A stretch of 64,000 nt of DNA from an uncultured Bacilli bacterium (GTDB taxonomy: Bacteria; Bacillota_I; Bacilli_A; RF39; UBA660), in assembly GCA_947624955.1 (NCBI GenBank), contig CANQMM010000001.1, positions 962 through 64,961 of the forward strand, in the 5' to 3' direction. The notes beneath the pieces are model-generated. The model was not told where the DNA came from, made no database searches, and saw only the letters and a program-made list of their open reading frames with translations. Shown here in pieces: positions 9,143 through 62,315 of the stretch (positions are counted from its first letter, which is position 1; each line of letters starts with the position of its first letter). The position numbers and the translations under genes were made by a program.

Positions 9143-9862
9143 ATGAATAAAAAAGTAATAATCGGTATCATAGCTGCCGTTATAGTAATATTAGCCGGAG
9201 TAGGTGTATATTTCTTCGCCTTCCATAATCCTGATGCTAAAAAGTTTAAAGAAGAATATGAATCCTTAAATAATACTATCAGAGAATCTGATGGCGAAAA
9301 ATATAATAATGTCGATATACCTAGAAACAATCCTATTAGATATGTAACTGTATCCGAAGCTCTAGATTTATTTAGTGAGAAAAAAGCGATTATCTATGTT
9401 GGTGCTAATTGGTGCCCTTGGTGTCGTAACATGCTTGCACCGATGTTCGATGTAGCTAAAGAACTAGATATCGATAAAATATATTATTTAGAGCTTGATG
9501 ATGATAAATCTAATTTTGAAATCCAAGATGGTGAATTAAAAAAGACTAGCAATGGTTCTGAAGATTACTATAAATTATTAGATGTTTTAAAAGATTATCT
9601 TGAAGATTATTCTTTAACTGATGAAGATGATAACAGTTATCCAACTGGTGAAAAAAGAATTAAGATGCCATTTTTCATAACCATCCGTAATGGTGGAATT
9701 GTCGAGGCTAAAGGCATAACTCGAACTCTAGAAGAAGGTCAAAGTAAATATTCCGAAATGACTGATGAACAATATGATGATTTATATGAAAAATTTTATG
9801 ATACTTTTAGTAAGATTTATCCATCAGAAGGTAGTTGCCCTGTAGATGAAGAATGTAATTAG
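9143..9862 (+). CDS. Membrane-anchored thioredoxin-fold protein (WCPWC active site)
   Basis: N-terminal TM VIIGIIAAVIVILAGVGVYFF; GANWCPWC CxxC motif; RBS gagaggag. Confidence 0.65.
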   Translation: MNKKVIIGIIAAVIVILAGVGVYFFAFHNPDAKKFKEEYESLNNTIRESDGEKYNNVDIPRNNPIRYVTVSEALDLFSEKKAIIYVGANWCPWCRNMLAPMFDVAKELDIDKIYYLELDDDKSNFEIQDGELKKTSNGSEDYYKLLDVLKDYLEDYSLTDEDDNSYPTGEKRIKMPFFITIRNGGIVEAKGITRTLEEGQSKYSEMTDEQYDDLYEKFYDTFSKIYPSEGSCPVDEECN

Positions 9863-10770: not shown

Positions 10771-11016
10771 ATGAAAAGAAAAGTTGGTATTAGACCCTCA
10801 AAATTTTCTTCAGCCATTGGCTTTATAATGGGAATAGCCTTTTGTTTTTTTGGCATCTATTTAATGTTTCAAAGTTTTAACTTTTTCCTAATAATATGGA
10901 CTCTAATGGCTTTATTAATAACTATCTACTATGGTATCAATCTCTTTTCTTCCAAAGGTCTTAGCTTATATAATATGACAATCGAAGAAGATAAAGATCA
11001 AACTGATAAGCAATAA
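10771..11016 (+). CDS. Small membrane protein (81 aa), hypothetical
   Basis: Two hydrophobic helices; RBS agaggtga; extended -10 TGGTATAAT upstream. Confidence 0.5.
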   Translation: MKRKVGIRPSKFSSAIGFIMGIAFCFFGIYLMFQSFNFFLIIWTLMALLITIYYGINLFSSKGLSLYNMTIEEDKDQTDKQ

Positions 11017-11031
11017 AATAAATATCGTTAT

Positions 11032-34565: not shown

Positions 34566-34704
34566 AAAGGAGTAATTAATTTTATTCCTTTTTTAAGACT
34601 TTCAATTCAAACAAACGTATGCTATAATAAAAATGTAATAAACAATAAAAATAATATTCAAATAAAGTTTTATTTGGTATAATTTTTATGACAAGGTGGT
34701 AAAA

Positions 34705-36792
34705 ATGAACTATTTAGATGGATTAAATGAACAACAATTAAAAGCTGTAAATCATATTGATGGGCCGTGTCTAGTCCTTGCCGGAGCCGGTAGTGGTAAA
34801 ACGCGTGTTCTGACTACTCGTATCGCTAATCTTATTGACAATGGGATTTACGGTAGTCATATCTTAGCCATAACTTTTACTAATAAAGCCGCTAAAGAAA
34901 TGAAAGAACGTTTAAACAAACTTATCCCCGATAACAATGTTTTTGTGGGAACTTTTCACGCTCTAGGTGTTCGTATTATAAGAGAAAATTATAATTTATT
35001 AGAATTAGATAAGAACTTTACCATTCTCGATAGTGAAGATGTTTTAAGTGTAATTAAAAAAATTCTCAAAGAATTAGGTTATGATCCCAAACTAAATTCC
35101 CCAAGTTATATTCGTAATCGCATCAGTTTTATCAAAAATGAAATGCTTAGCGCCGGGGAAATTGCCAAATTTTTTAACACTCCTGCTGAAAAAGTTGCGG
35201 AGAAAGTTTATTATGAATATCAATCCGTCTTAGCTCGGAATAATTCTGTCGACTTTGATGATTTACTCGTTTTACCAGTTGAGTTATTTGCAAGTCATCC
35301 CGAAATCTTAGAAAAATATCAAGAACGTTATCGCTACATCCTTATCGATGAATACCAAGATACTAACGAGGTTCAATATAAATTTAGTAAATTACTCGCT
35401 AAAAAGTATCGTAATATTTTCGTCGTTGGTGACCCTGATCAATCTATCTATATGTTTCGGGGGGCGAACTTCCGGAATATCCTAAACTTTGAAAGTGATT
35501 ATCCCAGTTCCGAGATTATTCCCTTAGAAGAAAATTATCGTAGTACTAACTACATTTTAAAAGCTGCTAACTCCGTCATCAAAAATAATAAAGAACGGAA
35601 AGAGAAGAATTTGTTCTCCGCCAAAGGCGACGGCGTCAAAACCAAATATATCCGCGCTTACGATGGGAAACACGAAATAACTCTCGTTATTGAAGAAATT
35701 AAAAAATTACTTAATGAAGGTTTTAGCAAAAAAGATATTGGAGTTTTGTACCGGACCAATGCTCAATCCCGCTTACTCGAAGAAATGTTTATTAAAGCCA
35801 ATCTCCCTTATAAAGTAGTGGGTAGTTATTATTTCTATAATCGTAAAGAGGTCAAAGATTTACTAGCTTATTTACGCCTTATCCAAAATCATCACGACGA
35901 TATTAGTTTAAGAAGAGTCATAAATGTCCCTAAAAGAGGTATTGGCGCTTCAACTTTAACCAAACTAGAAACTATTGCTAAAGAGAATAATACCTCGATG
36001 TATGATGCGATTAGCGGCGGTAAAGAGCAAACTTTTAAAGACTTAATCGCCGAGATTACCCAAGAAAGTGAAAACATCTCTTTAACGGAGTTAATCGATT
36101 TAATTCTAGATAAGACCGGGATGCAAGCCGAGTTAGAAAACGAAAAGAGTTTAGAAAACGATCTACGTTTAGAATATTTGCAAGAATTTAAAAGCATCAC
36201 GGCTTCCTTTGAAGAACGTACCGGTAGTGTTAATTTAGCCGATTTTTTAGAAGAGGTCAGTTTAATTGCGGATATCTCTGACCATCAAGAAAGTGAAGAT
36301 GTCATAACTTTGATGACTCTCCATAGTGCCAAAGGCCTTGAGTTTGAAGCTGTATTCATCGTCGGTATGGAAGATGGCATCTTCCCCCACGCCAATGCCT
36401 TTTTAGAAGAAGGGGGCTTAGAAGAAGAGAGACGCTTGTGTTATGTTGGTATTACTAGAGCTAAACAAAGATTGTATATTAGTAATGCGAAAAGAAGAAT
36501 TCTCTATGGTAAAGAAACGATGAATCCTCCAAGTCGCTTTATCGATGAAATCGACTCTAACTTACTCGATGTCCAAAATGAATTAATGCAAGAACAACCC
36601 AAAGTCGATAAAGAAGCCATCTATACCAATACTGATGCTGAATACCAAAATGGTGATGTTGTAATGCACACTATCTATGGCCGCGGCGTTGTCATTGATA
36701 TGCAAAATGATTTAGTAACTATTGCTTTTGCCAAAAATTTTGGTATTCGCAAAGTAATGAAAAGTTATAAAGGTCTAAGAAAAATTTCATAA
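34705..36792 (+). CDS. pcrA: ATP-dependent DNA helicase PcrA (UvrD/Rep family)
   Basis: Walker A AGAGSGKTRVLT; UvrD helicase motifs through length; start at ATG after AAGGTGG; adjacent ligA as in many Firmicutes. Confidence 0.9.
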   Translation: MNYLDGLNEQQLKAVNHIDGPCLVLAGAGSGKTRVLTTRIANLIDNGIYGSHILAITFTNKAAKEMKERLNKLIPDNNVFVGTFHALGVRIIRENYNLLELDKNFTILDSEDVLSVIKKILKELGYDPKLNSPSYIRNRISFIKNEMLSAGEIAKFFNTPAEKVAEKVYYEYQSVLARNNSVDFDDLLVLPVELFASHPEILEKYQERYRYILIDEYQDTNEVQYKFSKLLAKKYRNIFVVGDPDQSIYMFRGANFRNILNFESDYPSSEIIPLEENYRSTNYILKAANSVIKNNKERKEKNLFSAKGDGVKTKYIRAYDGKHEITLVIEEIKKLLNEGFSKKDIGVLYRTNAQSRLLEEMFIKANLPYKVVGSYYFYNRKEVKDLLAYLRLIQNHHDDISLRRVINVPKRGIGASTLTKLETIAKENNTSMYDAISGGKEQTFKDLIAEITQESENISLTELIDLILDKTGMQAELENEKSLENDLRLEYLQEFKSITASFEERTGSVNLADFLEEVSLIADISDHQESEDVITLMTLHSAKGLEFEAVFIVGMEDGIFPHANAFLEEGGLEEERRLCYVGITRAKQRLYISNAKRRILYGKETMNPPSRFIDEIDSNLLDVQNELMQEQPKVDKEAIYTNTDAEYQNGDVVMHTIYGRGVVIDMQNDLVTIAFAKNFGIRKVMKSYKGLRKIS

Positions 36793-36797
36793 TATAA

Positions 36798-38793
<1,996 letters not shown>

Positions 38794-38795
<2 letters not shown>

Positions 38796-55925: not shown

Positions 55926-56429
55926 TTATTTATCTGTAATCTCTTTTAACTGACTAAATTCCTTTACTAACTCTAACATAATCCCTTTTTTACAATTCGC
56001 CGGTGAAGTACTAGGTAGATAAATCGCTTCTATTCCAATCTTGGGATAAATATATTTATCATATAAACTCTTCGCTTTTCTTCCCAAAGTATAAATCTTT
56101 TCTATCTGACTATTTTTTAAGATGGGTTTTAAATTATTGGGAACTATATTTTTAATTGAACTATCACTTGAACCACATATTTCACAACTTTTTATGACAT
56201 CATATAAGGCAATATGATGTTTTTTTAAAAATGCCATTTTCCCCGGAATATCTTCCGGTATATCTTCTTGATAGACGATACTTAAAACTTGCCAAAAGTT
56301 ATTCATTTTATGGCCATAGTAAAATCCTACCTCTCGGGACTTGATCGAAGGCATACTTCCTAATAATAGCACTTTCGATTCGTCATCATATATTGGTGGT
56401 AATGTATGTTTAACTATTTTAGATTTCAT
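55926..56429 (-). CDS. UDG-superfamily DNA glycosylase, hypoxanthine/deoxyinosine-DNA glycosylase-like (family 6-like)
   Basis: LLLGSMPSIKSREVGFYYGHKMNNFW motif region typical of this family; start re-picked at internal ATG (track ORF extends to 56495 into neighbouring gene). Confidence 0.55.
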   Translation of the reverse strand: MKSKIVKHTLPPIYDDESKVLLLGSMPSIKSREVGFYYGHKMNNFWQVLSIVYQEDIPEDIPGKMAFLKKHHIALYDVIKSCEICGSSDSSIKNIVPNNLKPILKNSQIEKIYTLGRKAKSLYDKYIYPKIGIEAIYLPSTSPANCKKGIMLELVKEFSQLKEITDK

Positions 56430-57318
56430 GATTTTTAATCTTCTCAACAATGCCGTAAACCATCGAAATTCGCGTTGGAATAATATATTTAACATTTAAA
56501 ATATCTACTAATGACTTAACACATAAACGCATTCCTCTAGCACCACGCCACCAACCTTCGTTATGAGTTCTTTCACAAACCTCATCTAAATTAATTTCAT
56601 AAAAGAACTTTTTATCTAAGAAATCCATCGTCTCTACATCTAAACAATAAGGTTGTAAACTACTTTCATAAAACTTATTACTTTCTACCGGATACTCTAA
56701 CTCTTCATAAAAATAGATATAATCACCACCGGCTAGGATTAGTAAATCAGCTTTATTTTGTGGCGCACTTATCAACTCCTTCGTTTTAGCAAGCATTTCA
56801 TCGTAAGGAGTTTTGGCATAAGTTCCCCGAATATCCGGAAACATATCCGACGTATCCATCGCGCCAAAAGGATAATTTTTCTTTTCGATGATTTTTTTAT
56901 TTTCGACAATCGCTAGTTCCGTTGAACCACCGCCACCAATCATTACCGCCATCTTCCCCGGATAATCTGTCTCAGCTATTGCGCCATAAACTGTCAGTTC
57001 ATTTTCTTCATCACTCGATACAATTCGAAAATCTAAATTAGTAGCTTCTTTAAATTCTTTTAACCATTGTTCTTTCTGTTCTATAGTTAAATTTCTAAAT
57101 ATACTCGTTCCAAAAACATAGATATCTTCACAATCAATACCTTTAATAAAATCATATAATTCTTGCTTATCTTCCTCGCTAATCTCTCCTTGAACCTTAT
57201 AATGATTTTTAAATTCAATTGTTCTAAAGCCTAAATCCAAAACCTCATTATTTTCATATAAATATCCTTTAGTATTAGTACTCCCAATTTCCACTATGGC
57301 AAATCTTAGCTTTTCCAT
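56419..57318 (-). CDS. Ppx/GppA-family phosphatase (ASKHA fold), N-terminal catalytic domains only
   Basis: FAIVEIGSTNTKG, VFGTSIFRN, FRIVSSDEENELTVYGAI, MAVMIGGGGSTELAIVEN align with the Ppx/GppA phosphate-1/2 and adenosine motifs. Confidence 0.65.
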   Translation of the reverse strand: MEKLRFAIVEIGSTNTKGYLYENNEVLDLGFRTIEFKNHYKVQGEISEEDKQELYDFIKGIDCEDIYVFGTSIFRNLTIEQKEQWLKEFKEATNLDFRIVSSDEENELTVYGAIAETDYPGKMAVMIGGGGSTELAIVENKKIIEKKNYPFGAMDTSDMFPDIRGTYAKTPYDEMLAKTKELISAPQNKADLLILAGGDYIYFYEELEYPVESNKFYESSLQPYCLDVETMDFLDKKFFYEINLDEVCERTHNEGWWRGARGMRLCVKSLVDILNVKYIIPTRISMVYGIVEKIKNHEI

Positions 57319-57359
57319 ATTATCACCTCTAACATAACTATAACATAAAAATCTCTTAC

Positions 57360-57388
57360 TTGCTAAATAATTAACTTTTATCTATAAT
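57360..57388 (+). promoter_or_regulatory. Sigma-A promoter TTGCTA-17-TATAAT for the WYL operon; direct repeats AACATAA at 57331..57337 and 57342..57348 just upstream
   Basis: Hexamers and 17-nt spacing seen in sequence; repeats spaced 11 bp (one helical turn). Confidence 0.4.
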
Positions 57389-57408
57389 ATCTTTCAGGAT
57401 GTGATAGT

Positions 57409-57882
57409 ATGTCGAAAATTAGTAACGTTCTAACGATGCTCCAATATTTAAGTACCGGTCGAAAGTACAGTATCCAAGAATTATCTAATCTCTTAGAGGT
57501 ATCTCCAAGAATGATTAGAGTTTATAAAGACGAGTTAGAAAAAGCCGGAATTTATCTCGAAACTATCAAAGGTCCATATGGCGGGTATGTCTTAAACCAA
57601 AATATTAATCTTCCCGCAAGATTTATCACCCATAATCCCCTTAAATTACCCAATAAAGAAATCTATAATAAAATAAATTATGCTATCAAAAACCATCAAA
57701 AACTCTTTATTGAATATTATTCTCAAGATTTAAAATCAACTACGCAAAGAACTATCGTCCCCTATGAACTAATTTTACTAGGTCAAGATTGGGGCGTAGC
57801 TGCTTATTGTGAATTAAGAGAAGAAGTCCGCAATTTTTATCTCCAACGCATTAAAAATATAAAAATTGTTTCCAAAAAATAA
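57409..57882 (+). CDS. Short WYL-domain transcriptional regulator (HTH_11 + WYL, YafY/BrxR/CapW-type without WCX extension)
   Basis: N-terminal HTH VLTMLQYLSTGRKYSIQELSNLLEVSPRMIRVYKDELEKAGIYLETIKGPYGGYVL; C-terminal WYL pattern LFIEYYS...QRTIVPYELILLGQDWGVAAYCELREEVRNFYLQRIKNIKIV. Confidence 0.7.
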   Translation: MSKISNVLTMLQYLSTGRKYSIQELSNLLEVSPRMIRVYKDELEKAGIYLETIKGPYGGYVLNQNINLPARFITHNPLKLPNKEIYNKINYAIKNHQKLFIEYYSQDLKSTTQRTIVPYELILLGQDWGVAAYCELREEVRNFYLQRIKNIKIVSKK

Positions 57883-57942
57883 TAATGTGACATATATATT
57901 TCCTCATCTTATGTTATCTTAAACCTAGAAAGGAAGTATAAT

Positions 57943-58950
57943 ATGCAACATCATACAAGCGAATCGAGTACCATCAATTTTAATAATTTATTAGATCGTC
58001 TATTATCGATAAATGACCCTCAAAACGCCAATTTAAAATCATTGATTAATAAACTGTGGCCGAAGATTATGCAAGAAAATAAACCTACTATCATTATGGC
58101 TACCGGCGGTTCTAAAGTGCCGGCAACCTTTTTAAAACAAATTTTAGAAAGTAGGGGAGTAATTGCTGAGGTGATCGAGCCTCGTGATTATTTTTATAAA
58201 TCTAACATTTCTGCCTTCCAAAGATTAATGGTTATCTCTAGTAGTGGAAAAACCAATGGTATAGAATTTTCTCTATCAACTTTTCCCGGCGAAAAAATCC
58301 TTATAACGAGTAATCGCGAAGGTACTTATAAATGGGCTAGCGCCGAATACTTAAAAAATCTGGAAAAAAGTTTTGTCGCTCTTACTCCTTCCTTAGCTCC
58401 CATTCTTGCCTTCATTGCTATTGCCCTATATAATCCTGAACAAGATTTAGATGAATTATTATTAACTCTTAAAGAAAAAGTAAAATATCTTTTAAATAAA
58501 GCCCAAAATATCATTGAAGCAATTATATTGCCTGATTTTTCCAATATCGAAATAATATCTGGTTATGATACAGCAACAGCCCATACGATTTTAGAATCTA
58601 ATCTTGTAGAAAGTGGTACGTGTTCCGTTGTTATCCACGATAAGGGTTCCTTCTGTCACGGACGCAGCAACCTTGTATATCAAAACCATAACTTTTTAAT
58701 CCATCTTGCCCACAACTATAATTACTTTGATAATTTATTACTTGCTACCTTACAAGCCAACTATCCGCAAATCCTTTCCTTCCACACGCAATCAGTTTCT
58801 GAAAATTCCCTCCTTAAAGATCTATACTTGTCTTTTCAAATGTATTATTTATCCCAAAAATTAGCTGCTGCCAAAGGCATTGATCTTACTTGCCCGGATT
58901 ATAATCCCGATGTCGTAGTAAAATTATATACTTATAAAGGAGAAATGTAA
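57943..58950 (+). CDS. Double-SIS-domain sugar-phosphate isomerase/deaminase-like protein (GlmS C-terminal / AgaS / FrlB type)
   Basis: SIS signature TIIMATGGSKVPATFLKQI...MVISSSGKTNG; second half with FCHGRSN (HGP-like) and C-terminal LSQKLAAAKGIDLTCPDYNPDVVVKL resembling GlmS-type SIS C-terminus. Confidence 0.55.
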   Translation: MQHHTSESSTINFNNLLDRLLSINDPQNANLKSLINKLWPKIMQENKPTIIMATGGSKVPATFLKQILESRGVIAEVIEPRDYFYKSNISAFQRLMVISSSGKTNGIEFSLSTFPGEKILITSNREGTYKWASAEYLKNLEKSFVALTPSLAPILAFIAIALYNPEQDLDELLLTLKEKVKYLLNKAQNIIEAIILPDFSNIEIISGYDTATAHTILESNLVESGTCSVVIHDKGSFCHGRSNLVYQNHNFLIHLAHNYNYFDNLLLATLQANYPQILSFHTQSVSENSLLKDLYLSFQMYYLSQKLAAAKGIDLTCPDYNPDVVVKLYTYKGEM

Positions 58951-58951
58951 T

Positions 58952-59572
58952 ATGGAATTATATTTTGTTAGTGGTAACCCTAGTAAGGTTCAATCAACTA
59001 TTAGAAAATTTGCTAAATTAAATATTGAAGTCAAGCCCTTTGTTTATGATGCTAAAGAGTTAGATGTTAATGATATCGAAGCGATTTCGAAAGATAAAGT
59101 ATTGCAAGCTTATGCTCAATTACAAGCCCCTTGCTTTGTTTCCGATTCCGGTTTTTATATCCATCATTATCCGCATCATCCCAATTATCCCGGAGCATTT
59201 GCTAAACGTAGTGGTATCAGTAACGATATCGGTTCATTACTTAAAACTATGGAAGGAGTAAGCGACCGTAGTTGTGAATTTAAAGACTGTTTAACTTTTT
59301 ACGATGGTGTTAATTTTTATCACTTTTATGGCATAAGTAAAGGAACTTTAGCTACCTCTATTAGAGAGCAGAATACCCCAATTATTGCCTCCAATTTATG
59401 GCGGATTTTCATTCCCGATAATTGTGAGAAAACCCTTTCGGAAATGACTGATGAAGAAAGAGATCATCGTCCCGATAATCGTACTTCCGCAACTGCCCTT
59501 TTTGCCGATTGGTATTTAAATACTTATCTTCAAGAAAAAGCCCCAAGCTTGCAGTATCCCCCTTACAAATAA
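58952..59572 (+). CDS. Ham1/ITPase-family non-canonical NTP pyrophosphatase-like protein
   Basis: N-terminal LYFVSGNPSK (cf. RdgB ATGNxGK); SDSGFYI; PNYPGAFAKRSG (cf. GxPGxYSARxAG); C-terminal EERDHRPDNRTSATAL (cf. EKNxxSHRGKAL); 206 aa. Confidence 0.6.
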   Translation: MELYFVSGNPSKVQSTIRKFAKLNIEVKPFVYDAKELDVNDIEAISKDKVLQAYAQLQAPCFVSDSGFYIHHYPHHPNYPGAFAKRSGISNDIGSLLKTMEGVSDRSCEFKDCLTFYDGVNFYHFYGISKGTLATSIREQNTPIIASNLWRIFIPDNCEKTLSEMTDEERDHRPDNRTSATALFADWYLNTYLQEKAPSLQYPPYK

Positions 59573-59638
59573 TAATTTTTATGTTATTATTAATATAGGT
59601 AATATTAAAAGATCGACCTAATATAGGAGGCAACCATT

Positions 59639-60574
59639 ATGAATAACTATCAAAAACAAATACTTAGTAGTTGTCAATTTGTTTGTGATAACGCCACGCA
59701 CGTGAAGATTGATGAACAAGCTATCAAGGATTTTATTACTAACCATCCACATCTTTCTTCTTCCCATTGGCTTAGTTCTAATCCTTATGGTTTAACCGAT
59801 TTAAATAATCGTGATTTATATAACTTTTTACTTTTAAATGGTTCAATATGTTGCTTATTTTGGGGCGACCCTAAATGGACTTTAACTACTGCAAGTGGCT
59901 CTATCGATGGTGCTTTTGCCCAAATATATGGCCTTATGGAGATCTATAAAGCCAAAGGACATCTCGATTTTACTCAAATAACCTTTTCTGAATATCAAAA
60001 GTTTATGCGAGGAAATGTGGATATTCCGATGTTAGAAGAGCGCTATCAAATTCTTCATAATGTCAGTGCCACTTTAAATACTAAAATGCAGGGTAACTTT
60101 TATGATTTTATCAAAGATGTTACTACTGATACTGAATTAATGGAAATCATCATTAGTAATTTCCCTAGTTTTCAAGATACTCGCGAATATCAAGGTCATA
60201 CCATTCACTTTTATAAACTTGCGGAATTATTGACTAGTGACATCTTACATATCCGAGCTCTTAAAGAAAATATTGCTACCGATTGTACACACTTGACCGC
60301 TTGTGCCGATTATAAAATTCCCCAAGTTTTACGTGGGTTAGGTATTATCACTTATGATGAAGAATTAGCTCATTTAGTAGATAATCGAATGCTAATCCCC
60401 GAAAATAGTCCTTACGAAGTAGAAATAAGAGCTAGTGAAATTATTGCTATTCAGAAGATTAGTGAAATATTAAATCTTCCCGCCATCACGGTTAATGATG
60501 CCGTTTGGCTTTTAGGTCAAGATAAATCCATAAAATTAAAACCATATCATTTAACTAAGACAATGTCTTATTAG
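59639..60574 (+). CDS. Qng1/DUF2419-family protein (queuosine-5'-phosphate N-glycosylase/hydrolase family; C9orf64 homolog)
   Basis: Matches recalled C9orf64/Qng1 features: SCQFVCDNATHVKIDEQAIKDF (cf. SAQFIAE..DVFID), MLEERYQILHN, FPSFQDTREYQGHTIHFYKLAELL (cf. FPSYRD...KRVSFYKRAQIL), CADYKIPQVLRGLG (cf. FADYRLPQVLAHLG), EVEIR. Confidence 0.65.
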   Translation: MNNYQKQILSSCQFVCDNATHVKIDEQAIKDFITNHPHLSSSHWLSSNPYGLTDLNNRDLYNFLLLNGSICCLFWGDPKWTLTTASGSIDGAFAQIYGLMEIYKAKGHLDFTQITFSEYQKFMRGNVDIPMLEERYQILHNVSATLNTKMQGNFYDFIKDVTTDTELMEIIISNFPSFQDTREYQGHTIHFYKLAELLTSDILHIRALKENIATDCTHLTACADYKIPQVLRGLGIITYDEELAHLVDNRMLIPENSPYEVEIRASEIIAIQKISEILNLPAITVNDAVWLLGQDKSIKLKPYHLTKTMSY

Positions 60575-60586
60575 AAAGGAATACTT

Positions 60587-61474
60587 ATGCAACTATTAAT
60601 TATGGCTGCCGGTATGGGTAGCCGTTTTGGGGGCTTAAAACAAATTGAACCCTTTGGTCCAAATGGCGAGTTTATTATCGATTATTCTATATATGATGCC
60701 ATCCAAGCCGGATTTTCTAAAGTAGTCTTTATAATTAAAGAAGAAAATTATCAACTATTTAAAGAAACTATCGGATCACGCGTTGAACCGCATATTCCTG
60801 TTGAATATGTTTTCCAAAAGATGACCAATATTCCCGATTTTGTAAAAATTCCCGAAGGAAGAACTAAACCTTGGGGAACAGCTCACGCTATCTACTGTGC
60901 TAAAGATGCTCTTACTGAACCATTTTTAGTTATTAATGCCGATGACTTTTACGGTCGCGATGCCTTTATCACCGCTAAAAAATTTTTAGATACCCAAAAA
61001 AATAAGGAGTATGCGATTATTGCTTATGAAGTAGCCAATACTATGACGCAAAATGGTTCAGTAAAAAGGGGAGTACTTACTACCAATAATGATCAGCTAA
61101 CTTCCATTACTGAAAGTGCTATCTCTTATGATAATGAAAAAATCATTGCTAAACCACTCAATAAAGAGGAAACTTATAAAATCCCTGCTAATACTTTAGT
61201 ATCGATGAACATGCTCGCTTTTGATCTATCCATCTTTGATTATCTTGCTCTAAAAATGCGCGAATACTTTCAAAATGCTGATTTAATCAATAGTGAATTT
61301 TTAATTCCTGATGTTTTAGATGCTGCCAACCAAACCGGCTTTGCGCACGTATTAGTTTTAAAAACTAATTCCACTTGGTATGGCGTAACTTACCAAGAAG
61401 ATAAGGACTATGTCAAAACGGCAATCCAAAAATTAATTGCTGAAGGTGTCTATCCTAATAATTTATGGCAATAG
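60587..61474 (+). CDS. Sugar-1-phosphate nucleotidyltransferase (NTP_transferase fold; GlmU-N/RmlA/LicC-like)
   Basis: N-terminal LIMAAGMGSRFGGLKQ nucleotide-binding loop; GTAHAI; INADDFY motifs. Confidence 0.75.
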   Translation: MQLLIMAAGMGSRFGGLKQIEPFGPNGEFIIDYSIYDAIQAGFSKVVFIIKEENYQLFKETIGSRVEPHIPVEYVFQKMTNIPDFVKIPEGRTKPWGTAHAIYCAKDALTEPFLVINADDFYGRDAFITAKKFLDTQKNKEYAIIAYEVANTMTQNGSVKRGVLTTNNDQLTSITESAISYDNEKIIAKPLNKEETYKIPANTLVSMNMLAFDLSIFDYLALKMREYFQNADLINSEFLIPDVLDAANQTGFAHVLVLKTNSTWYGVTYQEDKDYVKTAIQKLIAEGVYPNNLWQ

Positions 61475-61476
61475 AA

Positions 61477-61499
61477 AAGTAAGCAAGCGCTTACTTTTT
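61477..61499. terminator. Bidirectional terminator hairpin (AAGTAAGC-aagc-GCTTACTT + TTTT) between convergent genes
   Basis: 8-bp inverted repeat; T-run on plus strand, A-run on minus; overlaps stop of 61491..62315. Confidence 0.5.
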
Positions 61500-62315
61500 A
61501 AATCTATTAAATAGGCTCCCTAATCTAAAAGTAGGTCCTTCTTTGCCTTCATTTAATGGCTTTTCTTCTACTTCCTCTTTAGGAACTATATGATAAGTAA
61601 TGACAAAATATCGATGATCTTCACTAAAATCAATTTCCGGAGTAGCATTGTCAACAAACTCATTTACCTCTAACAAAGTTGTGATTAATAGATCTTCAGC
61701 TGCGGCTTTAAAATCTTCCGGTATTATTTCATTTTCCCCTAATGATTTACCATCTTTTTTAAATATTAAAACTTGTAAAGGATTAAGTCCTTGATGCGCC
61801 ATATAAGGAGCGTGTTTTTCACAATATATTTCAAAGCCATCACTATCAGGTACTAAAGGGAAAGGCATCGTGATAAATCCTTGCTTTAATGATAAGAGAT
61901 TGGGAAATTGATTTAGTTTATCTTTTAATAGTTCTATTCTACTCAACTTTCCGTCTAGTTCTAATTTTCTTTTAGCATCATCTGGAGCTATAGCTTTTAA
62001 TTCACTATTATATTCTTGAATTAAATGATTAGTTTTCTCTCTTAATTTATTGTATTCCTCTTTTAATTCATCTGCCCGCATATCTTTATAATATTTAAAA
62101 TCGATAATCCAATCGGCCTGGTCGACAAATCTTACTGTCTCTTCATCGTCAAAGCGGACAAATTTATCTCCATTGTGTTTAGATATCATTCCCGCTAGGG
62201 TAGCCATTTCTATAAAACTAGCCGGCACACTAGGAGCAAATGTATTCGCTAAAGCGATATCGTATAATTGCACATAGACTACTTTCGTTCCGTTTTCTTT
62301 ATTAAATATTTTCAT
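61491..62315 (-). CDS. Hypothetical protein (274 aa)
   Basis: Long ORF, soluble, no motifs recognised; RBS aaggag upstream of ATG. Confidence 0.5.
   Translation of the reverse strand: MKIFNKENGTKVVYVQLYDIALANTFAPSVPASFIEMATLAGMISKHNGDKFVRFDDEETVRFVDQADWIIDFKYYKDMRADELKEEYNKLREKTNHLIQEYNSELKAIAPDDAKRKLELDGKLSRIELLKDKLNQFPNLLSLKQGFITMPFPLVPDSDGFEIYCEKHAPYMAHQGLNPLQVLIFKKDGKSLGENEIIPEDFKAAAEDLLITTLLEVNEFVDNATPEIDFSEDHRYFVITYHIVPKEEVEEKPLNEGKEGPTFRLGSLFNRFKK

Follow-up and report, generated by a model that had tools for sequence, protein, structure and literature searches.

In a 64-kb stretch of DNA from an uncultured Bacilli bacterium (the window, by which we mean the whole stretch analysed), five genes follow one another in a row that the initial annotation read as a single module headed by a WYL-domain regulator. 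All five co-directional open reading frames (ORFs) are present in the ORF list, as follows.

57409-57882, + strand, helix-turn-helix (HTH)-WYL gene, ORF of 157 amino acids
57943-58950, + strand, double-SIS gene, ORF of 335 amino acids
58952-59572, + strand, Ham1 gene, ORF of 206 amino acids
59639-60574, + strand, Qng1/DUF2419 gene, ORF of 311 amino acids
60587-61474, + strand, nucleotidyltransferase (NTase) gene, ORF of 295 amino acids

Three of the intergenic gaps originally given for this row (60, 66 and 12 nt) are correct, while the second, given as 2 nt, is 1 nt: the Ham1 start codon falls 1 nt after the SIS stop.

Judged by gene order across genomes, the conserved unit at this locus is three genes, WYL-SIS-Ham1 (about 57360-59572 of the window), and not five. 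We found 22-23 complete triads of this kind among about 35 loci, and every locus with enough flanking sequence has the same layout: an HTH-WYL gene (157-161 amino acids), about 55-60 nt, a SIS gene (320-360 amino acids), 1 nt, and a Ham1 gene (203-214 amino acids). Clustering of the flanking ORFs gave 34 loci with SIS, 29 with Ham1 and 26 with WYL, counts that are limited by contig ends; the next family was present in 10. The earlier idea of a co-conserved, undescribed nucleotide or sugar-phosphate unit thus stands for WYL, double-SIS and Ham1, and falls for Qng1 and the NTase. What remains, a cassette with its own double-SIS family and a conserved leader element, is smaller than the five-gene finding and a better-defined object.

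The same comparisons indicate that Qng1 and the NTase are independent genes, and chance downstream neighbours of the cassette here. The identity of each was correctly recognised at the outset. Qng1 matches Pfam PF10343 (Q_salvage/DUF2419) at 1.4e-37 (130 bits, cutoff 25), and the solved bacterial Qng1 structures 7uk3 (1.2e-34) and 7u07 (~1e-34) in the PDB, with which it shares a conserved ADYK(I/V)PQVL segment; bacterial Qng1 has already been recognised as a queuine-salvage signature gene (PMC11130926). The fifth product matches Pfam NTP_transferase at 4.7e-13, and in the PDB comes closest to 3pnn (5e-67), a conserved protein without a known function. We examined Qng1 homologues of 30-56% identity in 17 genome loci and 3 further contigs, and in none of these 20 loci did WYL, SIS, Ham1 or the NTase lie beside Qng1, nor did any neighbour family recur. 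Conversely, none of the approximately 35 cassette loci holds Qng1 or the NTase. The NTase has thousands of homologues at 65-70% identity, and orthologues in this range lie between pcrA and ligA in three independent contigs. In the window, pcrA (34696-36792) and ligA (36816-38795) are directly adjacent with no NTase between them, so that in this genome the gene has been displaced by about 22 kb from the place that it holds in relatives. Run across related genomes, the synteny test therefore shows that the five-gene combination is not co-conserved, with the NTase belonging to a housekeeping pcrA-ligA context, and the claim of a single five-gene module does not survive it.

Some observations on these two genes stand apart from the cassette. 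The pcrA-NTase-ligA arrangement appears conserved and unexplained; in L057-L061, a 297-amino-acid NTP_transferase-fold gene, also with 3pnn as its best PDB match, sits between pcrA and ligA. In L018-L020 (e.g. L019, 3254-10855) there are two tandem Q_salvage paralogues of 248 and 313 amino acids, and these loci also hold UDG-family, NUDIX, HAD, GIY-YIG, Ppx/GppA and adenylosuccinate synthetase genes; Ppx, UDG and Qng1 genes are likewise near one another in the window. Either chance or a loose nucleotide-care neighbourhood in distant genomes could account for this. The 66-nt gap between Ham1 and Qng1 contains no significant terminator, so co-transcription of Qng1 with the cassette is possible in this organism. 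Qng1 also has a promoter-like site of its own.

59562-59590, promoter-like site of Qng1, with a TG extension

From nucleotide comparisons between loci, the cassette is a mobile block of 2.3 kb that passes from one chromosomal site to another in uncultured low-GC gut Bacilli. The block (2302-2354 nt, 95-99% nucleotide identity) has sharp ends and unrelated flanks; it starts ~30-50 nt 5' of the WYL start codon and ends ~90 nt past the Ham1 stop. It adjoins tRNA-Met, tRNA-Arg or tRNA-Leu genes, and in ~10 loci fragments of a large serine recombinase lie before it; L040 and L045 have the recombinase intact, together with a DUF5677 protein and a Mob_Pre relaxase. The other flanks are ordinary chromosomal genes, including those for SecA, aminoacyl-tRNA synthetases, pyruvate kinase, RecG and RF-1, and no copies of the SIS protein were found in plasmid, phage or viral-contig collections. 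At the 3' end of the cassette stands a 60-nt element, TAGTGATTAGTTGTTTATCAACTATTCCTAAGGTTTCGGATATACTATTTGTCCGTACCA, which in several loci is duplicated around an extra inserted gene; this duplication suggests a recombination (att) site that captures genes.

Individual loci add further detail. In L035, copies of the 60-nt element at 9672-9731 and 10963-11022 flank an extra gene for a 182-amino-acid lipoprotein-like product, and copies are also seen in L031, L032, L033 and L044. A tRNA-like nature of this cassette end (...GTACCA) was considered and rejected, as neither ARAGORN nor Rfam supports it. In L040 (2359-7421) and L045 (2367-7421), the WYL gene is immediately preceded by a small integrative mobilisable element, which carries the large serine recombinase, the Mob_Pre relaxase and a DUF5677/peptidase_C15 protein. 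In L054 (616-1191), the SIS gene between WYL and Ham1 seems degenerate: residues 77-303 align at 32% identity, with no intact ORF, and this may be a decaying copy of the cassette.

The first gene of the cassette encodes a minimal regulator, as initially proposed. Its 157-amino-acid product matches Pfam PF08279 (HTH_11) over residues 8-60 (8e-7) and PF13280 (WYL) over residues 85-153 (3.8e-15), as well as the PADLOC WYL model (1.7e-28), and its WYL domain weakly resembles the PafBC, CapW and BrxR domains in the PDB (1e-5 to 1e-2). The protein ends at residue 157, four residues past the WYL match, and has no C-terminal WCX domain; its homologues in other cassettes are 157-208 amino acids long. 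WYL is the best conserved of the cassette genes, with 63-75% identity to the copies in other loci, compared with 38-46% for SIS and 45-56% for Ham1.

The 335-amino-acid product of the second gene was described as a GlmS/AgaS-type double-SIS protein, and this is borne out by structure prediction together with weak profile matches, not by Pfam. It has no Pfam SIS match (PF01380), although a few of its relatives do; its only NCBIfam match, to TIGR02128, is weak (19 bits against a cutoff of 214, 4e-4), and a profile built from 34 homologues weakly matches SIS proteins in the PDB (7e-5). The AlphaFold (AF2) model has a pLDDT of 90.6, and Foldseek matches it to double-SIS structures of the GlmS-isomerase, GlmD, AgaS and NagB-II types with E ~1e-12, TM ~0.7 and 13-17% identity; the matches to 2aml, 2df8, 2cb0, 7kqa and 1moq extend over ~335-375 columns with TM 0.6-0.7. 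Two tandem SIS (flavodoxin-like) domains are thus confirmed at the level of the predicted structure. The family is small, with 376 clusters at E<=1e-3 in an exhaustive profile search of 1.84 billion representatives. Its signature motifs are GTGGS, PRD, S-x-S-G-x-T, EKSF, LESxxxExG and H(D/E)K....HGR, which are conserved across the family, and YKGEM at the C-terminus. In GlmS, Glu488 is the catalytic base and His504 the ring-opening histidine. Alignment to E. coli GlmS with hhalign places SSSGKTNG on SQSGETAD, E223 on E488 and H239 on H504, and the phosphate loop and the equivalents of Glu223 and His239 are conserved family-wide. By these residues, the SIS protein looks catalytically competent.

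The third product, annotated as a Ham1/ITPase-like pyrophosphatase, indeed matches Pfam PF01725 (Ham1p_like) over the full length of its 206 residues at 4.8e-17. It falls below all NCBIfam equivalog cutoffs, with 94 against 203 bits for NF011396 and 64 against 145 bits for TIGR00042. Among 18 cassette homologues, both SGNPSK (GNxxK) and FVSDSGF (FVxDSGF, which bears the catalytic Asp) are conserved, and with its catalytic residues intact the enzyme looks competent. In place of the canonical base-pocket motifs GFGYDP and SHR, all cassette Ham1 proteins, and a Ham1-SIS fusion (P0406) as well, have KSNLW(Y/R)xF and (N/H)(R/H)TSAT. This replacement indicates that the pocket is not that of an ITPase, and because the motifs that recognise hypoxanthine are the ones replaced, the substrate is probably not inosine or xanthosine triphosphate (ITP/XTP).

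Relatives of the SIS protein occur with other partners, and many of the 376 clusters are fusions. Two are Ham1-SIS fusion proteins (P0406 and P0433), and five, of 640-717 amino acids, are PfkB-SIS fusions (P0439, P0450, P0470, P0500 and P0518). An HTH-WYL gene precedes both of the fusions whose loci were looked up (P0439 and P0406), at 54-58 nt. Weak NCBIfam matches to fructokinase and fructoselysine kinase were also seen. Two loci have the layout WYL-SIS-DHH/DHHA1 (L046 and L052), and one has NUDIX-HisPhos-WYL-SIS-PfkB (L069). In L025 and L026 the order is NUDIX-WYL-SIS-Ham1, with a convergent UDG-family gene immediately downstream; L029 has NUDIX upstream of the cassette and a partial UDG match downstream, and the cassette of the window is likewise near a gene of the deoxyinosine-glycosylase family. 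The fusions and alternative layouts make WYL and SIS the invariant core, joined by a variable partner that can yield a 5'-phosphorylated nucleoside or sugar, be it an NTP pyrophosphatase, a kinase of the ribokinase family, a phosphoesterase or a NUDIX hydrolase. The fusions further show that SIS and Ham1 are functionally coupled. None of the cassettes examined contains a sugar transporter or phosphotransferase-system (PTS) gene.

In two divergent WYL-SIS loci, L053 (9056-10099) and L050 (1120-1611), the gene after SIS is neither Ham1 nor DHH, and the products (347 and at least 164 amino acids, respectively) have no Pfam, NCBIfam or PHROG match.

The combination appears to be new to catalogues of defence systems. 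In PADLOC-DB v2, the WYL protein is the only one of the five products with a match, the others (SIS, Ham1, Qng1 and NTase) having none, so that the cassette corresponds to no defence system catalogued there. PHROG has no match for SIS or Ham1, and a literature search found no description of SIS+Ham1, of WYL+SIS in an anti-phage setting, or of WYL+PfkB.

The spacer between WYL and SIS is far more conserved than the cassette proteins themselves, and contains three overlapping or adjacent features.

57887-57900, + strand, near-invariant box GTGACATATATATT (also written TGACATATATATT) at the start of the WYL-SIS spacer
57912-57920, + strand, TGnTAnnnT motif (TGTTATCTT) in the apical part of the spacer hairpin, resembling an extended -10
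57888-57945, + strand, conserved spacer hairpin (-15.5 kcal/mol, z = -3.8 in the window)

The box reads TGAC..AT..T..CC.C at its invariant positions in 16 aligned loci. It has one exact copy in the window, and diverged versions are found in distant members (L062, L065, L066 and L069). We regard it as a likely candidate for the binding site of the WYL protein. In the spacer alignment (A2), T33, G34, T36, A37 and T41 of the TGnTAnnnT motif are invariant, and the motif is a candidate internal promoter for SIS-Ham1. A conserved DNA box beside a TAnnnT -10-like element recalls promoters of the PafBC and DriD types. The alternative that the box is the -35 of this promoter was rejected: a spacing of ~22 nt is too long for a standard sigma-70 promoter, and we therefore treat the box as a regulator site.

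The spacer is also predicted to fold. The SIS Shine-Dalgarno sequence, AAAGGAAG (57929-57936), is paired to an anti-Shine-Dalgarno arm, TTTCCTC (57899-57905), and at the base of the hairpin the SIS start-codon region is paired to CATATATA, so that the predicted fold buries the SIS ribosome-binding site. The hairpin folds in every locus, with -12 to -22 kcal/mol, and is followed by a U-run in most; its apical stem shows compensatory changes and G-U pairs. A covariance model of the element (R1) has one match per cassette, on the + strand only, and also matches the held-out loci L054, L066, L062 and L069, with nothing significant in control loci. Rfam has no match for the regulatory region or for a complete cassette.

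Upstream of the WYL gene, and at the far end of the five-gene row, three further features had been described.

57331-57348, + strand, two AACATAA direct repeats (copies at 57331 and 57342), 11 nt apart, earlier proposed as an operator
57360-57388, + strand, promoter-like site P1, TTGCTA-17-TATAAT, upstream of the WYL gene, matching 10/12 consensus positions
61476-61499, terminator hairpin common to the convergent NTase gene and 274-amino-acid ORF (-12.8 kcal/mol, z = -3.9)

The terminator is real: none of 200 shuffles folds equally well. The promoter, which had been called a clean sigma-A promoter, is present as a site, but sites of its type occur at chance density in this AT-rich window (40 found, 39 expected); a TATAAT-like box lies 25-35 nt 5' of the WYL start codon in most homologous loci. 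The AACATAA repeats fare worse as sites for the WYL regulator. Both copies exist, but the heptamer is found 27 times in the window against 24.7 expected, i.e. at chance frequency, and was not seen upstream of homologous WYL genes; on these two counts we rejected it as a conserved site. The element between WYL and SIS is a far better regulatory candidate. No common operator motif was found upstream of the WYL genes, where the regions are too AT-rich and variable across homologous loci; GATA...TATC palindromes lie over the -10 box in some of them.

The flanking genes match the families first assigned to them, namely a deoxyinosine-DNA-glycosylase family gene (originally called hypoxanthine-DNA-glycosylase-like; NCBIfam TIGR04274, 117 bits, cutoff 80), Ppx/GppA (NCBIfam) and a PRPP synthetase (NCBIfam NF005299, 342 bits). 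The convergent 274-amino-acid ORF stands between the PRPP synthetase gene and the gene cluster. As listed, the UDG-family ORF (55926-56495) and the Ppx gene (56419-57318), both on the - strand, overlap by 77 nt. The UDG-family match starts at residue 32 and homologues are ~164 amino acids long, so that translation probably begins at Met 23; the two genes would then form a Ppx-UDG operon, oriented divergently to the WYL gene.

Collectively, these data are consistent with a model, to which we give a probability of roughly one half, in which the cassette is an inducible module, for house-cleaning or catabolism, that acts on a non-canonical nucleotide or on a related compound of the ribosyl-5-phosphate kind. 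In this model, Ham1 would hydrolyse an unusual NTP to the 5'-monophosphate. The double-SIS protein would then bind that 5'-phosphate through its S-x-S-G-x-T loop and, with its GlmS-type Glu/His pair, would act on the sugar moiety, either by opening and isomerising it or by deglycation, and so destroy or recycle the product. In the sister modules, the enzyme that stands in for Ham1 or joins it is a PfkB kinase, a phosphoesterase (DHH/DHHA1) or a hydrolase of the NUDIX type, and each of these could likewise supply SIS with a 5'-phosphorylated substrate. Expression would be controlled by the WYL protein, whose likely target is the spacer box together with the TGnTAnnnT motif. In transcripts that read through from the WYL promoter, the hairpin would bury the SIS ribosome-binding site and, in most relatives, terminate transcription, while WYL-controlled initiation at the internal -10-like element would produce a translatable SIS-Ham1 mRNA.

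Several points weigh against this model. The chemistry of the SIS step is drawn from homology and gene fusions, and the substrate is only putative; the hhalign probability of the alignment to GlmS is low (20%), yet the alignment runs colinearly across 271 columns and fits the fold match. Formal covariation statistics for the spacer hairpin are weak to marginal, and the case for it is carried by the per-sequence folds and the strand-specific covariance-model matches. The internal promoter is only a motif. The cassette of the window is the most divergent copy seen and its spacer is without the U-run, so that regulation may differ there. Finally, several cassette flanks hold mobile-DNA genes (Bro-N, RhuM, serine recombinase, Mob_Pre relaxase and DUF5677), and mobility, tight translational insulation and a WYL regulator, none of them obviously needed for housekeeping sanitising, are typical of defence or toxic cargo.

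These last features are what an anti-phage or anti-mobile-element system would predict, in which WYL silences the cassette until infection or DNA damage, and Ham1 (or PfkB/DHH) and SIS then deplete, destroy or generate a nucleotide. Hydrolysis of phage-specific modified dNTPs, or of canonical NTPs, leading to a replication stop or abortive infection, would be examples. WYL regulators such as CapW and BrxR often control defence systems, and the regulator here fits the PADLOC WYL model; the cassette is mobile, beside tRNA genes and recombinase remnants and with Bro-N/RhuM neighbours; its third gene is swapped modularly among loci; and the tight sequestration of the SIS ribosome-binding site would suit a toxic product. 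A Ham1 fold in immunity also has a precedent in KomB of the Kongming system, whose PDB entry, 8zsg, is matched by the cassette Ham1 at 1.4e-7. In the KomB clade, the catalytic Asp is always changed to His, the ITP pocket is kept, and the protein is tied to SIR2 (bioRxiv 10.1101/2024.12.20.629578), whereas the cassette protein keeps its Asp, and none of the cassettes examined contains or adjoins a SIR2 or deaminase gene. The missing PADLOC matches for SIS and Ham1 also speak against defence, as do the alternative partners (kinase, NUDIX, phosphatase, phosphoesterase), which look like consecutive metabolic steps and not like effectors. Most flanks are housekeeping genes and not defence islands, and the SIS family has a narrow taxonomic range and no copies in the plasmid and phage collections searched. 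We hold a defence role to be a serious but minority possibility. A more specific proposal, which we consider unlikely, makes the cassette a new kind of mobile system for either immunity or sanitation at the level of the nucleotide pool: a signal sensed by WYL would lead Ham1, with its re-tuned pocket, to remove pyrophosphate from a foreign or damaged (d)NTP, and SIS would break the sugar-base linkage of the monophosphate so formed by GlmS/FrlB-like ring-opening (Amadori-type) chemistry. Candidate substrates include modified dNTPs specific to phages and purine nucleotides of the ring-opened/FAPy type.

A more conventional explanation makes SIS an ordinary amino-sugar or fructosamine-6-phosphate deaminase/deglycase of the AgaS, GlmD or FrlB type, and Ham1 a housekeeping RdgB that shares its operon. 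GlmD, AgaS and NagB-II are indeed its best structural matches. The frl operon pairs the FrlD kinase with the FrlB deglycase, a pair that the PfkB-SIS fusions mirror, and the weak matches to fructokinase and fructoselysine kinase point the same way. The existence of Ham1-SIS fusions makes a plain deglycase role unlikely. Moreover, the altered-pocket Ham1 subfamily is exclusive to this SIS family, there are NUDIX and DHH partners as well, sugar transporter and PTS genes are missing from every cassette, and the regulator is a WYL protein and not of a sugar type (RpiR, GntR); we judge the explanation quite improbable. The original proposal, a five-gene pathway of WYL, SIS, Ham1, Qng1 and NTase that would salvage or sanitise a 7-deazapurine or some other modified nucleotide, draws on the co-directional order, the short gaps, the lack of a significant terminator between Ham1 and Qng1, the single end hairpin, and the link of all five products to nucleotides or sugar phosphates; the distant relative L019 likewise has UDG-family, Ppx and Qng1 genes clustered in a few kb. 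Against it stand the 20 Qng1 loci without conserved neighbours, the approximately 35 cassette loci that never hold Qng1 or the NTase, the pcrA-ligA location of the NTase orthologues, from which the gene is displaced here, and Qng1's own promoter-like site. As the cassette is a mobile block, its position beside Qng1 is most simply an insertion. By synteny the five-gene pathway is largely refuted, and we give it very little credence.

If the house-cleaning model is correct, gut Bacilli possess a two-enzyme route, horizontally mobile and under tight regulation, by which a non-canonical nucleotide is removed and dismantled. An unannotated family of double-SIS enzymes would gain a function, and the biology of Ham1 would extend past the cleaning of ITP/XTP and the sensor role in Kongming. 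The cassette would also offer a compact system for studying a minimal WYL regulator whose target element is well defined and highly conserved, and it would be a caution for guilt by association, two of the five genes in the "operon" being passengers. Cleavage of the sugar-base linkage by SIS ring opening, if true, would be enzymology not yet described for nucleotides; should the cassette instead serve defence, it would represent a new class of nucleotide-targeting immunity.

Each cassette protein can be set beside better-known relatives. Like the PafBC, DriD, CapW and BrxR regulators, the WYL protein has an N-terminal HTH followed by a WYL domain, and its gene lies directly upstream of, and co-directional with, its presumed targets. 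At 157 amino acids it is about half the size of that type (~290-330 amino acids in total) and has no WCX domain, and its presumed targets are nucleotide or sugar-phosphate enzymes in place of DNA repair or known defence genes. The SIS protein shares with GlmS-isomerase, AgaS, GlmD and FrlB the two-SIS fold, the S-x-S-G-x-T loop and a Glu/His pair at GlmS spacing. It differs from them in its 13-17% identity, in belonging to no Pfam or NCBIfam family, in its own H(D/E)K....HGR and YKGEM motifs, and in its company, which consists of nucleotide enzymes (Ham1, NUDIX, DHH) with no sugar transporter. The nearest pathway logic is that of FrlD (a PfkB kinase) with FrlB (a deglycase), given the kinase-plus-SIS layout of the sister modules.

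The cassette Ham1 has the fold, Pfam family, GNxxK motif and Asp-bearing DSG of RdgB/Ham1/ITPA, and presumably the same reaction, NTP to NMP and pyrophosphate. It departs from these enzymes in the replacement of GFGYDP and SHR and in scoring far under the equivalog cutoffs; unlike them, it is encoded in a mobile WYL-regulated cassette, where it is always paired and sometimes fused with a double-SIS protein. Kongming, composed of the KomA deaminase, the HAM1-like sensor KomB and the SIR2 protein KomC, resembles the cassette in being a three-gene system with a specialised, non-housekeeping protein of the Ham1 fold. The two specialisations run in opposite directions: KomB has lost the Asp to His, kept the pocket and is coupled to SIR2, whereas the cassette protein has kept the Asp, changed the pocket and taken a SIS partner.

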